NCBI GenBank assembly: GCA_029856045.1
Contig: JAHQWG010000037.1
Coordinates: 1-24,450 of the forward strand
Length of the DNA: 24,450 nucleotides
Direction: 5' to 3'
Origin: Promethearchaeia archaeon
Lineage (GTDB): Archaea > Asgardarchaeota > Lokiarchaeia > Sigyniarchaeales > SOKP01
The notes below the pieces were generated by a model. The model saw nothing but the letters and a program-made list of their open reading frames with translations, had not been told where the DNA came from and searched no databases. The position numbers were made by a program, and so were the translations under genes. Positions 18,627-24,450 of this stretch are shown in pieces (position 1 is the stretch's first letter; each line of letters starts with the position of its first letter).

Positions 18627-18899
18627 TCATAATGTGATTTTTATTATTTCTTTCATTTTTTCTTCTATTTTTGCACTTTTAATTGCCTTTTCTATATCTT
18701 CATGTTTAGCTCCTTTAGAAATTTTGACTATTTCTTTTAATGGCTCTAAGTGTTTAAAATTAACTCTTCTTCTTTTAACTACAAGTCCATCAACAAGAAC
18801 GAAATTTTTATCAATAATTTCGACGATTATGCATTTTTTTCCAGCTTCTCTTCCAGTTGTCTTTACGCAGACTCTTCCTATTTCGTATATTGTGCTCAT
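18627..18899 (-). CDS. rpl14e: 50S ribosomal protein L14e (eL14)
   Basis: EIGRVCVKTTGREAGKKCIIVEIIDKNFVLVDG...KRRRVNFKHLEP. Confidence 0.97.
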   Translation of the reverse strand: MSTIYEIGRVCVKTTGREAGKKCIIVEIIDKNFVLVDGLVVKRRRVNFKHLEPLKEIVKISKGAKHEDIEKAIKSAKIEEKMKEIIKITL

Positions 18900-18995: not shown

Positions 18996-19529
18996 TTAAG
19001 ATTTTTTAATTTTAGCAACAATTTTTTCCACAGTTTCTTCAATTGATAATTTTTCTGTATCAATTATGATATTATATAATTCTCTTATTACTTTTTCATC
19101 TTGTAAATCGATATTATATAATTTTTTAAATCTTCTTGCTTCACTCAATTCTCTGCGTAATGTCTCATCAATTTTCTCTTTATAATTAGTTTCATCTCGG
19201 TTACTCATTCTTTTTACACGGGTCTCAAGAGGACAACGAAGTATTATTTTAAAATTTGCATTATCCTTAAGAATGTAAGCACTTAATTGGCTATCAATAA
19301 TGATATTCCCCATAATTGCGATATTATTTATCTTTTTATCCAGCATAATATCTATTTTTGGATTTTTTTCAGCAAATTCAGTAAATTCTTTAAGAGACAT
19401 ATTTTGTTCTTTTGCAAGTTCCCTGAAAGCATCACCTGTAGAATAATAACGTAAATTAAAAATTTCAGCGATTTTTTTACCTATTGTTGATTTCCCTGTT
19501 CCATGAAGTCCAGAGATAGTAATTATCAA
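18996..19529 (-). CDS. cmk: Archaeal cytidylate kinase
   Basis: IITISGLHGTGKST P-loop, STGDAFRELAKE, RELSEARRFKKLYNID; sits between eL34 and eL14 as is usual in archaea. Confidence 0.93.
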   Translation of the reverse strand: MIITISGLHGTGKSTIGKKIAEIFNLRYYSTGDAFRELAKEQNMSLKEFTEFAEKNPKIDIMLDKKINNIAIMGNIIIDSQLSAYILKDNANFKIILRCPLETRVKRMSNRDETNYKEKIDETLRRELSEARRFKKLYNIDLQDEKVIRELYNIIIDTEKLSIEETVEKIVAKIKKS

Positions 19530-19565: not shown

Positions 19566-19841
19566 TTAAGATTCCTCAGCCCAAACTGATTCTTGAATCA
19601 ATTTTTGAAGGCAAGAAACACAAAATTTTCCACTATAGGGTCTTGTTGCCTTACGGGCAGTCTTAGGAATTTTTTTCATTTGCGAAGGTCTAACTCGTGG
19701 GATACCTTGCAGAGGGCGTTTGCAGAGCATACAATGAGCTTTTTTTGGTTTTCTCCGCGAATAATGAATAACATTCTTATTTCCGGGTGTTGTTCTCTTA
19801 ATGCGTGCTAAAGAATGACTTCGATATGCTGGTTTTACCAT
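19566..19841 (-). CDS. rpl34e: 50S ribosomal protein L34e (eL34)
   Basis: RTTPGN...HY...AHCMLCKRPLQGIP...RPYSGKFCVSC. Confidence 0.96.
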   Translation of the reverse strand: MVKPAYRSHSLARIKRTTPGNKNVIHYSRRKPKKAHCMLCKRPLQGIPRVRPSQMKKIPKTARKATRPYSGKFCVSCLQKLIQESVWAEES

Positions 19842-19973: not shown

Positions 19974-20612
19974 TCAGAGATTTAATTTGTTTTTAAACTC
20001 TTTAAAAATTGAATAAATTTTTTCTGCCAAATTATCTTGTTCTTGAGGTGTTTGCATAATATCATCAGGTAATTTTTTAATTTTTGTATAAAATGAATCA
20101 ATTTTTTCTTTAATTGAATCAAGCCCAGGAAATTTTTCTAAAGAGATTAATAAATCAAGAAATAATTTTTTTAGTAATTTACCAGTTGCAACATCTCTTA
20201 ATTTCAATGCGTCCATCAAGGTAATAAAACTACTAGTAATTTCTGTTGAGATTCCTGGTAACTCTAAAACTGCTTGTTGAAGTTTAGGTCTTAGATTTTC
20301 ATCCGCTTTTTTATAATTTGTATCTACTTGGCTTGGATTAAATTTCAAGTTAGAAACATTGTTAATTATGTCAATAGCTTGATGATAATCTTCAGAGAAT
20401 CCCATTTTTTCTAAAAATATATTTAAATTTATCCCCTTATCTTGTAATGAGAAATTAAATTGAATTAATTCTTGGATTGTGGACTTTATTGATTTTAAGT
20501 AGAAATTTTCTTGAATTTCTCCTTTTGAATATTTATTATGAATATTTAAGATAGTTTTAACTAAGGCGAATAGTTCTGATTCAATTTCAAGGATTGATTT
20601 CTGGTTTTTCAT
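19974..20612 (-). CDS. vps28: ESCRT-I subunit Vps28 homolog (N-terminal core and C-terminal four-helix bundle)
   Basis: N-terminal SELFALVKTI...KYSKGEIQENFY resembles the Vps28 aELySii.tl..lEkaY.kd.I....Y pattern. C-terminal EITSSFITLMDALKL...LFLDLLISL matches the Vps28 FITxMDALKL signature. Confidence 0.88.
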   Translation of the reverse strand: MKNQKSILEIESELFALVKTILNIHNKYSKGEIQENFYLKSIKSTIQELIQFNFSLQDKGINLNIFLEKMGFSEDYHQAIDIINNVSNLKFNPSQVDTNYKKADENLRPKLQQAVLELPGISTEITSSFITLMDALKLRDVATGKLLKKLFLDLLISLEKFPGLDSIKEKIDSFYTKIKKLPDDIMQTPQEQDNLAEKIYSIFKEFKNKLNL

Positions 20613-20633
20613 ACAAATCTATTTTTAAATTTA

Positions 20634-21581
20634 TTATAAAGTTCCAAGAATCGTTGGTTTTAATAAGAAAAATATTATAGCGGTTATTATACCTATAGAA
20701 ACAGAGGACAAATATACTCGGTAAGTAGATGAATTGGCGAGTTCTCTGATTGCAATTGTCATATTCATTGGGATCCAAACAATTAACACAATGGCATCGA
20801 GAATATCTAACACCATCCAAGTTGGAGATTGAAAAAATGTGCTAAATACAGTGCTGTAAGAAGAAAAGTCAAAGGGGAGGGATATTTGTTGGTTAGGTAT
20901 TGCAATTAGGATAATTAAGACTTTTATAAATCCTGTAATTATAAGAGGCGTAAAAGCACAGAATAACATATTATATTTATTAGCTTCTTGTTTTTGAAGG
21001 AGAGTTCCTGATTTATATATGCTAAATACAGATGCTTCTTCTGCCAATTTTCCCTTTTCTTTCTTATCTTTGTCTTTTCTTTTCCCAAACCGATCCTCCA
21101 ATCTTTCAGTGAAACCTATAGAGTAATTTGCTCCTTTTATAAAAAAGTAGGATAAAACTATAAGAAGCAAAAAGTAATAAACAAAGCCAAAGGCAAGAAA
21201 TGCTATATAAACAGATAAAAAATAACCAAATAATATAGTTACATCATAAGGATTAACAGGAGTTCCATTTATATCAATAATTTGAAAATGTGAAAATAAT
21301 GCTAACCCAAAAAGGCCATAAATCAATGAATTAAAAAGAATGATAAAAATCCCGGGGGCGGAATCTCGCTTATGATTAATATCCCAGAATGCTTTCGCAG
21401 GATTGATGATTAAGAGATAGAATTTAGTCAGAAAACTCTCTGGATTGCTCCATTCTGCTTCATATCTCTTAAAAAAAAGAAATTTTTCAATGCGTTCTAC
21501 GCGCAATCTTTTACCACAGAAAGAGCAGACATAACTTCCAGAAGGGGGGCTATTCCCGCACCTTGGGCAACGAATCGACAA
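20634..21581 (-). CDS. Zinc-ribbon + Yip1-like multi-pass membrane protein
   Basis: CPRCG-x8-CSFCG zinc ribbon; Yip1-like LLIINPAKAFWDI opening; about 5 TM segments; TTG start. Confidence 0.65.
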   Translation of the reverse strand: MSIRCPRCGNSPPSGSYVCSFCGKRLRVERIEKFLFFKRYEAEWSNPESFLTKFYLLIINPAKAFWDINHKRDSAPGIFIILFNSLIYGLFGLALFSHFQIIDINGTPVNPYDVTILFGYFLSVYIAFLAFGFVYYFLLLIVLSYFFIKGANYSIGFTERLEDRFGKRKDKDKKEKGKLAEEASVFSIYKSGTLLQKQEANKYNMLFCAFTPLIITGFIKVLIILIAIPNQQISLPFDFSSYSTVFSTFFQSPTWMVLDILDAIVLIVWIPMNMTIAIRELANSSTYRVYLSSVSIGIITAIIFFLLKPTILGTL

Positions 21582-21785
21582 GAATGTTCTTCCTTTATTT
21601 TATAATTTTTGTTATATTATAGATATCGTATTTTTTATTTTTATTTTTATTTCATTATTATTTACCCAGAAAATTTCAACTTTAAATTTTTATTGTGAAT
21701 AAATAATTAAAGTGAAGAATTTCTGATGCTTTAAGAAAAAAAATAAAAAAAAGTATAGAAAATTAAATAGAAATTAGGTTTTATT

Positions 21786-22022
21786 TTACCTAGTAGCATT
21801 TCGAATATCTAAAGCAGTAATACGCTTCCTTTTTGCAGCTTTGGTTAATTTAATAGACTCTTTAGTAATATCAGCTGCCGCATTTTCTAAATATCCAATT
21901 AATTTATCAAGAGCTTCTGCTGCTACTAGACTAGCACCTTCTGCTTTCATTAAGCGTCTAATAGGTGCTTTTGCGATATAAGCTGCACTTTTTTTCTTTA
22001 CAGCTTCTTTCTTTTTTGCCAT
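21786..22022 (-). CDS. Archaeal histone with short Lys-rich N-terminal tail
   Basis: Histone fold IAKAPIRRLMKAEGASLVAAEA...AKRKRITALDI. ATG at 22022 follows SD GGAGG (22031-22035); tail MAKKKEAVKKKSAA. Confidence 0.93.
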   Translation of the reverse strand: MAKKKEAVKKKSAAYIAKAPIRRLMKAEGASLVAAEALDKLIGYLENAAADITKESIKLTKAAKRKRITALDIRNATR

Positions 22023-22101
22023 AATATATTCCTCCAATTTTTTTTTATTATAATACTATTTTTTGAAAAATTTTTTTCTAAATAAACCTATACCTTTCTA
22101 A

Positions 22102-22280: not shown

Positions 22281-23345
22281 TCAAATTGTTTTTTCTTTCA
22301 GATTTACAAGAATTCCATTATTCTCTTTTAAAATTTTATATTCTTTCAAATTAAATTTTTGGAGTAATTCTAAATTTGTCTTTAGATGACTTGTTATTTC
22401 AGAAACTCTTATTTGAGATTCTCCATTAGCAATTGTCATAATTGGAATCAACTGATCAGCTAGATAATTATCCACGGGTATTTTATTTTTAATATAGGAA
22501 ATAATTTCATTTGCAGCACGTTTTCCTACCTTTTCGGACGAAACACCTCTTTCTCCCAAGATTGTTCCTGAACTAATAATTGCATTTGCATCTGACTCAG
22601 CCCACAAACAAACACCTACTCCAGTACTATATGTTTTTACATATTTTGTAAAAATAAAAGATTCTAGATTTAATTTTTGTTTTAATTCAGTCTCTATAGT
22701 TTTTTTAATACGTTCTGCAACTTGTGGTTTCTTTAAAGATTCTGCGCATATAATTTGACCTTTTATTTGGCTAACTTTTCCTAAATCAACGATCTCTATC
22801 GGTTTTATTGGTTGTGCAGGACCATTTATTGTGAAATACAAGTGTGCACCACCTTTAGGATAAAATCCATGACGAAGTATTTTTAAATTGATTTTATAAC
22901 CCACTTGTTCATAAATCTTAAAAAGAACATTTGTTAAAAAAGAAGTTCCTGGTGCCCATTTTCCAAAGGTTCCGCCACCTTTTATTTCAATATCAATTTT
23001 TTTTCCAGAACCTAACCTGATACATGCAATTTGAACCGGTTGGAGCAATAAAGCAACATTTCCCGCTGTTTCAACATTTATAATTAAATTTTCCTTAAAC
23101 TCATCCCCAGGAGAAAATTCAATTTCTGTGGTCCCTACTGTAGATTTAGATAAATATCCACCAGTAAGTTTTTCCAATATTTGCAATCCGCGTAAGTGTT
23201 GTAATCGTAATCCCGGTTTTGGTCTGTTTGCCCTAATATTTTTAACTATTATTGGGATTTGTTTTAACACAGAAAAGCCTGATGATAACCGTAATATCGA
23301 TCCACCCCCCTCAAGAAGTGATCCATCAATAGCTAACGGTTCCAT
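22281..23345 (-). CDS. rtcA: RNA 3'-terminal phosphate cyclase
   Basis: IDGSLLEGGGSILR, RPKPGLRLQH, GFYPKGG, LADQLI and catalytic His in ITSHLKTN. Confidence 0.95.
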   Translation of the reverse strand: MEPLAIDGSLLEGGGSILRLSSGFSVLKQIPIIVKNIRANRPKPGLRLQHLRGLQILEKLTGGYLSKSTVGTTEIEFSPGDEFKENLIINVETAGNVALLLQPVQIACIRLGSGKKIDIEIKGGGTFGKWAPGTSFLTNVLFKIYEQVGYKINLKILRHGFYPKGGAHLYFTINGPAQPIKPIEIVDLGKVSQIKGQIICAESLKKPQVAERIKKTIETELKQKLNLESFIFTKYVKTYSTGVGVCLWAESDANAIISSGTILGERGVSSEKVGKRAANEIISYIKNKIPVDNYLADQLIPIMTIANGESQIRVSEITSHLKTNLELLQKFNLKEYKILKENNGILVNLKEKTI

Positions 23346-23350
23346 AGAAT

Positions 23351-24450
23351 TTAATTCCTATTCAATTTTTTAATTCTTTCAATTCCATCAATTTTTTCAA
23401 TTAATTTAATCACAGGCTTAGGAACTAATTCAGTCCATTTATTATCATTTTTTGAAATTAGTTCTCTAATATAAGCTCCATTAAATTCATCTTTATGATA
23501 GTATTTTGGTTTTACAATCTCGCACTTTTTTCCTAAAAAAAGATTTCTTATCCACTCATTGGGTGTATATATGATGTCAAAATCGCCGACAATCTTGAAG
23601 ATATTATCAACCCATTTTTTTGCATCATACATGTCCGGAATTTCATAGAAAGTAATTTTTTTAAAATCTATGCCGGTTTTTTTTAAGGATTCAGTAATAA
23701 AACTTTTTCGTTCTTTAAAATTAAAGGGATTCATTTTTGTATTATATTCTTGAGAACTCCCTATTCCGATTTTCAGTTGTTTATTTTCTTCTATTATTGT
23801 TTTAATAATATGTAAATGTCCATAATGAAATGGTTGGAATCTCCCAATAAATAATGCACATCGATTTTTTTTATCTAATTCAGGTTGTTCTTTAAAAAGG
23901 TTAATTATATCCATATTTATAAAAATGTTCCACAATTTTTTAGTTATCGAGATAAAATTTTTTGTTTTTAATAATTGACTCAGCTCATCTTTAGAGTAAA
24001 ATCGACTAGATTCAATATCAACTTCATTAGGATTTAAATGAATATTAGAGTCAATTAAGGCAATAAAGATATAACTTATCTCAAAAGACTCTTCAGGTTC
24101 TGGTTGCATGGAATAGAACTTAATTTTTTGCGGATATACTCCCATCTCTTCAAATAGTTCCCTCTCAGACTCTTGAATAATATCTTTAAAACTTAATTTT
24201 TTCTTGTAATTAATATGTCCAGAAGCTGAATCCGTATAAAAATTTGGATAAACCTTTTTATTTTTACTTCTTTTTTGGATTAAATATTTAACCTCTCCAT
24301 TCTTATCAATAAAAAACGCAAAAATCCGAACGATAAGATGGTATAGATTCTTTTCGTGAACAATTTTTCTTTTTTCCGGAAAGATATAAGGAGATATTTT
24401 ACCTGTATGTAGATATTTAATATCCTCTTTATTAATGCATGCTAAAAGTT
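23351..24450 (-). CDS. Nudix (IDI/YfcD-like) domain fused to NMN adenylyltransferase (NadM-type); 5'-truncated by window
   Basis: The frame is open from 24448 through the ORF-track ATG: ...VHEKNLYHLIVRIF...YLIQKRSKNKKVYPNFYTDSASGH...SERELFEEMG. The C-terminal domain has FIGRFQPFHYGH, IGIGSSQ, NPFNFKER and NGAYIRELI. Confidence 0.88.
   Translation of the reverse strand, partial: LLACINKEDIKYLHTGKISPYIFPEKRKIVHEKNLYHLIVRIFAFFIDKNGEVKYLIQKRSKNKKVYPNFYTDSASGHINYKKKLSFKDIIQESERELFEEMGVYPQKIKFYSMQPEPEESFEISYIFIALIDSNIHLNPNEVDIESSRFYSKDELSQLLKTKNFISITKKLWNIFINMDIINLFKEQPELDKKNRCALFIGRFQPFHYGHLHIIKTIIEENKQLKIGIGSSQEYNTKMNPFNFKERKSFITESLKKTGIDFKKITFYEIPDMYDAKKWVDNIFKIVGDFDIIYTPNEWIRNLFLGKKCEIVKPKYYHKDEFNGAYIRELISKNDNKWTELVPKPVIKLIEKIDGIERIKKLNRN

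Follow-up and report, generated by a model that had tools for sequence, protein, structure and literature searches.

A Yip1-family zinc-ribbon protein encoded next to Vps28 is a candidate membrane partner of the ubiquitin-ESCRT pathway in Asgard archaea

The window analysed here is a stretch of 24,450 nucleotides from a Promethearchaeia archaeon of the order Sigyniarchaeales (Asgardarchaeota, Lokiarchaeia; assembly GCA_029856045.1, contig JAHQWG010000037.1, positions 1 to 24,450 of the forward strand), and our interest is in two neighbouring genes within it. One codes for a zinc-ribbon, Yip1-like membrane protein that we call ZnYip (20634-21581, minus strand; an open reading frame of 315 amino acids with a TTG start) and is followed by the gene for Vps28, a subunit of the endosomal sorting complex ESCRT-I (19974-20612, minus strand; 212 amino acids, ATG start, PF03997). 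According to the list of open reading frames both lie on the same strand with 21 nucleotides between them, exactly as the initial annotation of this DNA had described, and the spacer (20613-20633, minus strand) is A/T-rich and free of any oligo-T run. The CxxC...CxxC ribbon, the five transmembrane helices (TM1-TM5) and the charged loop after TM2 which that annotation had assigned to the upstream gene product are all present, too, as judged by sequence, AlphaFold2 (AF2) model and charge counts.

ZnYip begins with the zinc ribbon (residues 5-22; 21516-21569, minus strand), a C-x2-C-x10-C-x2-C motif (C5-x2-C8-x10-C19-x2-C22) with weak Pfam zinc-ribbon matches, whose four cysteines are invariant in our ZnYip family alignment (A1, also used as a profile) and in its phylum-wide counterpart (A4); two further alignments cover Vps28 and relatives (A2) and short forms of ZnYip (A3). 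Behind the ribbon lies a conserved linker (residues 29-47; 21441-21497, minus strand), a family-specific head motif that reads E-x2-E ... R ... W-x2-P in the window and E-x2-ER-x-LP-x-L-x-RP in other lineages. In A1, E29, E32 and R39 of the linker do not vary and W44 and P47 hardly do, while E29 and E32 stay invariant phylum-wide (A4). The five-helix, Yip1-like membrane core (residues 57-315; 20637-21413, minus strand) was delimited from AF2 helices, charge distribution and conserved columns, and it carries conserved motifs on its predicted cytoplasmic face, namely A-F-W-D-I (64-68), R279 and T286 (A1). Inserted after TM2 are ~55 Lys-rich residues (157-211; 20949-21113, minus strand), which the AF2 model depicts as disordered between 168 and 196 (predicted local distance difference test, pLDDT, < 50) and helical between 193 and 210. 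This charged loop is a lineage-specific insertion limited to part of one order: among the four families of the order (f1-f4 in our numbering of families) it is missing from f3 and f4, and it is missing from every orthologue outside the order. The model as a whole (pLDDT 82, predicted TM-score 0.81) shows five long hydrophobic helices, and Lys plus Arg residues along the successive non-membrane segments number 13 (N-terminus), 0, 14, 0, 1 and 1, with residues 141-211 holding the 14. From this distribution, an N-in/C-out topology is predicted, which would place the ribbon, the insertion and the R279...T286 motif in the cytoplasm. As for the start of the gene, the apparent initiation codon is a TTG (window 21570-21581) with a purine-rich aaggaag before it; close relatives begin at an ATG two codons further on, where the window reads ATT.

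Compared directly with the Pfam Yip1 family PF04893, ZnYip stays below threshold (16.1 bits versus a cut-off of 28.6, E 0.011, residues 57-142), and the A1 profile retrieved only 139 proteins at E <= 1e-3 from 1.84 billion representatives. Remoter and shorter matches of A1 (250-280 amino acids), however, pass Pfam Yip1 at 37-74 bits and bear Pfam zinc ribbons, and hhalign of A1 against the short forms in A3 gives a full-length alignment (probability 100, E 1.5e-47) in which the insertion after TM2 is the sole large difference. Hence, of the Yip1-like character claimed in the initial annotation, family membership stands by full-length profile homology, while the opening that had suggested it amounts to the sub-threshold PF04893 match. 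In structural comparison, the best neighbour beyond ZnYip's own cluster is an archaeal cluster (TM-score 0.56 over 214 residues), 59% of whose members carry PF04893; neither Foldseek nor an exhaustive VIA search found a convincing solved relative of the model in the Protein Data Bank (PDB; best Z 5.3). The published orthologous group of ZnYip, cog.000454 / arCOG02054, is described as 'Yip1 family membrane protein'. ZnYip is present once in its own genome and once per genome in relatives, and its tree follows taxonomy. Going by these profile comparisons, then, it is a divergent, single-copy Yip1-family protein, and it represents, in this order, a single-copy membrane protein that Asgards as a whole have inherited vertically. 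Yip1 has previously been listed as an Asgard 'eukaryotic signature' family found in all three domains (PMC13734099).

The predicted architecture of a cytoplasmic N-terminal head, a five-helix core and a C-terminus outside would be common to ZnYip, eukaryotic Yip1/YIPF (PF04893) and arCOG02054. Known Yip1 proteins differ from the window's ZnYip in that the latter scores below the Pfam threshold and has its ~55-residue Lys-rich insertion after TM2; moreover, the head of ZnYip consists of the zinc ribbon and the E-x2-E(R) linker, whereas that of eukaryotic Yip1 is a Rab-binding N-terminal domain. Eukaryotic Yip1/YIPF proteins bind Rab GTPases and work with them in traffic between endoplasmic reticulum and Golgi, whereas the genomic partners of ZnYip are ubiquitin and ESCRT genes (see below). 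GTPase genes do occur near ZnYip in places, which is a loose hint only: at one locus of family f4 (L035) ZnYip is 2 kb from the gene of a Ras-family small GTPase, and the ubiquitin operon beside ZnYip in the more distant family f26 codes for a 214-aa protein in which a RING finger is fused to a small Arf/Ras-type GTPase (L056:4400-5044, minus strand; also L066). At two f4 loci (L035, L041), short-form ZnYip adjoins a ~740-790-aa protein combining AAA+ (Mg-chelatase-like) and VWA regions.

The downstream gene encodes a true full-length, two-domain Vps28, in line with its initial assignment. Its match to PF03997 scores 47.3 bits where 24.5 is the cut-off and spans positions 2-188 of the 188 in the profile, while the same profile found no match in 14 control genomes, and both halves match yeast Vps28: the A2 profile hits the C-terminal domain in PDB entries 2j9u, 2j9v and 2g3k (E 3e-5) and the N-terminal part in the ESCRT-I core entries 2f6m, 2f66, 2p22 and 2caz (E 2e-4 to 1e-3). 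An N-terminal helical domain (~7-91), a disordered linker (91-115) and a C-terminal four-helix bundle (117-210) make up the protein, whose AF2 model (pLDDT 79.5) has N-terminal helices at 7-29 and 35-58. The four best Foldseek matches of that model are Vps28 C-terminal domains (2j9w, 2g3k, 2j9v; probability 1.00, TM-score by target 0.76-0.84, root-mean-square deviation ~2 A). In two-hybrid assays with proteins from another Lokiarchaeial strain, Vps28 contacted a UEV-containing Vps23 homologue and Vps22, and possibly a steadiness-box protein (PMC9192718). Another Vps28-type C-terminal domain (PF03997 positions 88-180, 24.7 bits) ends a protein of 788 amino acids that is encoded elsewhere in the same genome (contig C36, locus L107:2402-4768, minus strand) and kept at ~790 amino acids throughout the order; its other regions are of DDRGK-like, UFL1 (E3 UFM1 ligase)-like and PCI/winged-helix type. 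This separate soluble protein can be placed among the 'Vps28-C multidomain proteins' (Makarova et al. 2024) and, unlike the window's Vps28, has no linkage to ZnYip.

Adjacency of the two genes is a lasting feature of the order. ZnYip was detected in 55 of 61 related genomes, and among the 49 loci examined from families f1-f4 (two of which end at contig borders) 35 (24 in f1, 10 in f2, one in f3) have Vps28 as the next gene downstream in the same orientation, with gaps of 1-110 nt (median 61); at two further loci Vps28 is 0.7 and 1.7 kb away from ZnYip. Conservation of the pair, on which the initial annotation had made its proposal depend, is thus found in three families. The pair is, however, embedded in a longer block, NMNAT-RTC-ZnYip-Vps28-L34e-cmk-L14e, that is syntenic in the order. 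Upstream in the window are an NMNAT-like gene (23351-24145) and the RNA 3'-phosphate cyclase gene (RTC; 22281-23345), and downstream, in the same orientation as the pair, those for ribosomal protein L34e (19566-19841), cytidylate kinase (cmk; 18996-19529) and ribosomal protein L14e (18627-18899), all identified through Pfam and all on the minus strand. L34e, cmk and L14e are members of this frozen block, not of the system that we discuss.

At least seven family-level lineages outside the order have ZnYip within the ubiquitin-ESCRT supercluster or at its edge, where it usually stands tail-to-tail to the gene for the ubiquitin-activating enzyme E1. A typical layout is ZnYip; E1-E2-Ub-RING; UEV-Vps23-Vps28-Vps22; Vps25-Vps4; Snf7. 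In f17 (Hermodarchaeota), ZnYip and E1 are tail-to-tail in all of 10 loci, ZnYip flanking a cluster of E1-E2-Ub-RING, UEV-Vps23-Vps28-Vps22 and Vps25-Vps4, with Vps28 ~4 kb away where the contig extends that far; ZnYip is placed in the same way in f20 and f26. It adjoins Vps25-Vps4-Snf7 in f11 and E1-Ub in f19. In f27, 16 of the 19 genomes with both genes have ZnYip and Vps28 on the same contig at a distance of 2.4-3.8 kb, and the three loci viewed in detail have ZnYip between UEV-Vps23 and E1. A closed 1.4-Mb Odin-like genome, finally, has ZnYip (L110:10633-11340, plus strand) at the edge of the complete cluster and 3.5 kb from Vps28; this orthologue has no zinc ribbon, and its open frame begins at the conserved linker. 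The A1 profile under-detects the short forms, so that family tallies based on it are lower bounds; A3 recovered copies in f27 and f10 that A1 had missed. It is the E1 gene, not Vps28, that emerges as the oldest and most faithful neighbour of ZnYip, and together with the larger block around the pair this speaks against a self-contained two-gene module as it had initially been pictured. In the literature, for Heimdall LC_2 and LC_3, Table S2 of Makarova et al. 2024 (PMC10936438) places a gene of the Yip1 family next to E1 or Ub, which the paper does not discuss, and one sentence of a 2023 preprint (10.1101/2023.07.25.550441) mentions Yip1 in a Hodarchaeial UEV-Vps23/ubiquitin cluster. These are the only mentions of the linkage in the published sources searched, and the main texts among them do not count the Yip1-family gene as part of the cluster.

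How the window relates to such clusters can be seen from the distribution of the other genes in its genome. Vps28 alone of the ubiquitin-ESCRT genes is on the window's contig, from which the full cluster is absent; Snf7, Vps4, Vps25 and Vps22 are on contig C36, E1 and E2 amid unrelated genes on C47, and C15 carries a second Snf7. The ZnYip-Vps28 pair is 0.4-0.5 Mb from Vps22 in closed genomes of the order. A sister order within the class has Vps28 as part of a canonical cluster (Snf7; Vps4-Vps25; Vps22-Vps28-UEV-Vps23), and separate ubiquitin and ESCRT regions have been reported for Lokiarchaeota (Hatano et al. 2022, PMC9192718). While the window's Vps28 is like that of the Asgard ubiquitin-ESCRT clusters in being an orthologue of their ESCRT-I subunit (Hatano et al. 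2022, PMC9192718; Makarova et al. 2024), the window's order is unlike them in keeping only Vps28 beside ZnYip, among RTC and ribosomal genes. We envisage an ancestral layout with ZnYip on the plus strand, the ubiquitin block on the minus strand and UEV-Vps23, Vps28 and Vps22 on the plus strand, and a break-up of the supercluster in the window's order that would have removed the ubiquitin block together with Vps23. Taking these out leaves exactly ZnYip and then Vps28 on one strand, which suggests that the pair is probably a relic of ZnYip's ancient linkage to the ubiquitin-ESCRT supercluster.

The recognised parts of the Asgard ubiquitin-ESCRT machinery are all soluble, and orthologues of Vps27 (hence ESCRT-0) or Bro1/Alix have not been found in Asgards (PMC10936438), which raises the question of how the machinery finds its membrane. 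Of the genes that we followed around this machinery in distant lineages, ZnYip alone codes for an integral membrane protein. ZnYip may therefore be considered a candidate membrane-embedded partner of the pathway: its cytoplasmic head and loops would supply a membrane address for the soluble machinery, likely in the form of a docking platform or of a dedicated ubiquitylated receptor, with Vps28, UEV-Vps23, E1/E2/E3 or ubiquitin as possible contacts. A functional tie is plausible in that ZnYip has kept to the machinery over class-level distances and despite several rearrangements, and judging from gene neighbourhoods we put the chances of such a tie at about even. A far more specific version, in which ZnYip has served since the Asgard ancestor as the membrane receptor of ubiquitin-ESCRT with a role like that of ESCRT-0 or a cargo receptor, and the ZnYip-Vps28 pair reflects direct contact with ESCRT-I, strikes us as unlikely. 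Prediction of a complex between full-length ZnYip and Vps28 (from A1 and A2) gave a score of 0.00 in two runs without controls, which we weigh neither for nor against binding.

A functional tie has to be set against the view that nothing but inherited gene order is involved, with ZnYip being a general housekeeping membrane protein and its placement a functionally meaningless, slowly decaying ancestral arrangement. Yip1-family proteins occur, after all, in archaea and bacteria without ESCRT, and several of our observations count against a link to the pathway. Most genes of the block from NMNAT to L14e, ribosomal ones included, have unrelated functions and yet the block is conserved as a whole, so persistence of the pair in the order may be inertia and adjacency there is weak evidence on its own. 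At six f1 loci from five genera (L008, L009, L012, L013, L022, L032), L34e directly follows ZnYip and Vps28 is cleanly missing; a full-length Vps28 is nowhere to be found in five of the genomes (89-97% complete, from four genera), not even with a profile of the lineage itself, and the sixth (61% complete) has none in a Pfam search. Going by the tree, Vps28 was lost at least two or three times, and as ESCRT-I subunit it seems dispensable in several genera of this family, yet ribbon and loop of ZnYip are unchanged in the genomes without it. In f4, short-form ZnYip is found in another context and full-length Vps28 is not detectable. Links to ESCRT are also absent from f12 and f31, where ZnYip is between an ECF-S-like gene and UbiA, and from f13, f24, f10 and f30, where it is elsewhere; f12 has ZnYip without a Vps28 that Pfam can detect. 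Conversely, sister orders have Vps28, yet five genomes searched contain no ZnYip orthologue, and at a wider scale arCOG02054 is also known from archaea without ESCRT-I or ubiquitin (PMC5898192). We thus reject the idea that ZnYip and Vps28 strictly go together throughout the phylum, each being found without the other, and because co-occurrence fails in both directions the neutral explanation stays a serious one. Furthermore, ZnYip and E1 are convergent and not co-transcribed, and the lineages are not independent observations if their linkage stems from a single ancestral arrangement. On the other hand, inertia accounts poorly for a linkage to ubiquitin and ESCRT genes that outlasts class-level distances and rearrangements which shift ZnYip's position in the cluster: Hermod and Odin-like genomes have it at the edge, f27 has it between ESCRT-I and E1, f11 has it next to Vps25, and in the window it is beside Vps28. 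Also, when the cluster broke up in the window's order, Vps28 remained with ZnYip instead of following Vps22 or Vps23. With these points in mind, we find it doubtful, albeit possible, that inherited order is the whole explanation.

If function is involved after all, ZnYip might be a dedicated substrate rather than a docking platform: the co-encoded E1/E2/RING cascade would ubiquitylate its Lys-rich cytoplasmic parts, UEV-Vps23 would read the ubiquitin and ESCRT would nucleate on the membrane, a role that is filled in eukaryotes by ubiquitylated cargo and ESCRT-0. Consistent with this, the closest conserved neighbour of ZnYip is the E1 and ubiquitin operon rather than an ESCRT gene, and its predicted cytoplasmic segments contain the above 13 and 14 Lys/Arg residues. 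The lack of Vps27 and Bro1/Alix orthologues in Asgards (PMC10936438) and the recruitment of eukaryotic ESCRT by ubiquitylated transmembrane proteins (PMC9192718) would fit as well. Yet the sequence of events is one that we infer, orthologues outside the order do not share the Lys-rich loop and ubiquitin genes are no longer near ZnYip in the window's order; to our minds, such a substrate role is quite improbable.

The other specific option is the one put forward in the initial annotation, namely that the C-terminal domain of Vps28 serves as a docking site for the ribbon, and perhaps for the charged loop too, to give a two-gene membrane recruiter of ESCRT-I. The precedent is yeast Vps36, whose NZF-N finger binds the Vps28 C-terminal domain (entries 2j9u, 2j9w), and such docking is a special case of the functional link considered above. 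The pair is tight, co-oriented and conserved, ribbon, loop and Vps28 are all predicted to be cytoplasmic, and the C-terminal domain of Vps28 is structurally conserved, its model matching solved ones. Like NZF-N, the ZnYip ribbon is a small four-Cys finger with the C-x2-C-x10-C-x2-C spacing of NZF/RanBP2 fingers, and many f1 relatives have an Asn four residues past the second Cys. This spacing is, however, common to many generic zinc ribbons, and the signature of the NZF/RanBP2 class is W-x-C-x2-C-x3-N, whose Trp and Asn are both missing from the window protein: Ile-Arg precedes the first Cys, and Pro is at +4. When compared with the PDB, the ribbon profile returned LysW, Rpo12, L32, Nop10 and rubredoxin first; the sole RanBP2-type match was Nup153 at E 0.089, a Vps36 or Npl4 finger did not come up, and there is no Pfam zf-RanBP match. 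We have therefore rejected the NZF interpretation of the ribbon in favour of a generic one. Unlike NZF-N, the ZnYip finger is on an integral membrane protein rather than an ESCRT-II subunit, and its conservation is independent of Vps28, as it is kept equally well in genomes that lost Vps28 and in f12. Add to this that the Odin-like orthologue is ribbonless although only 3.5 kb from Vps28, and that the charged loop is restricted to part of one order, and NZF-style docking, which our data do not support, appears very unlikely.

Some further features of these neighbourhoods may be recorded apart from the argument. In the window, a histone gene (21786-22037, minus strand; Pfam) lies upstream of ZnYip in the same orientation, and immediately 3' of it is a long oligo-T run (21733-21752, minus strand) that resembles an archaeal terminator. 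Inspection by eye of the spacers between ZnYip, Vps28 and L34e revealed no comparable run; the spacers around these genes are A/T-rich with TATA-like words everywhere. Elsewhere in this genome, the Snf7, Vps4-Vps25 and Vps22 cluster is located at the very start of C36 (142-3781, L108), where a NIP7-like PUA gene occupies the place that Vps28 and UEV-Vps23 take in the sister order, and on C47 (L118:7199-8500, plus strand) a gene for an IS605-type TnpB (OrfB, Cas12f-like TNB domain) adjoins the E2 gene. The ECF-S-like gene of f12 and f31 (L053:5327-5917, plus strand; about 20 loci in f12) is upstream of and co-oriented with ZnYip, the UbiA prenyltransferase gene is convergent and the arrangement is family-wide. 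The conserved 196-aa product of the upstream gene was considered as a hidden Vps28 and rejected (hhalign probability 0.2), as it resembles the S component of ECF transporters.

What the locus means depends on which of these explanations applies. Were it mere inherited gene order, we would be looking at an ordinary remnant of a dispersed cluster. If, instead, ZnYip is a membrane partner of the ubiquitin-ESCRT pathway, models of pre-eukaryotic sorting would gain a membrane component from a family that acts in eukaryotic vesicle traffic, and small soluble pieces of ZnYip (the head, residues 1-76, and the cytoplasmic loops) could be tested against Vps28, Vps23, E1/E2/E3 and ubiquitin. And should the receptor role with direct ESCRT-I contact hold, a Yip1-family protein would have been tied to ESCRT recruitment before eukaryotes arose.

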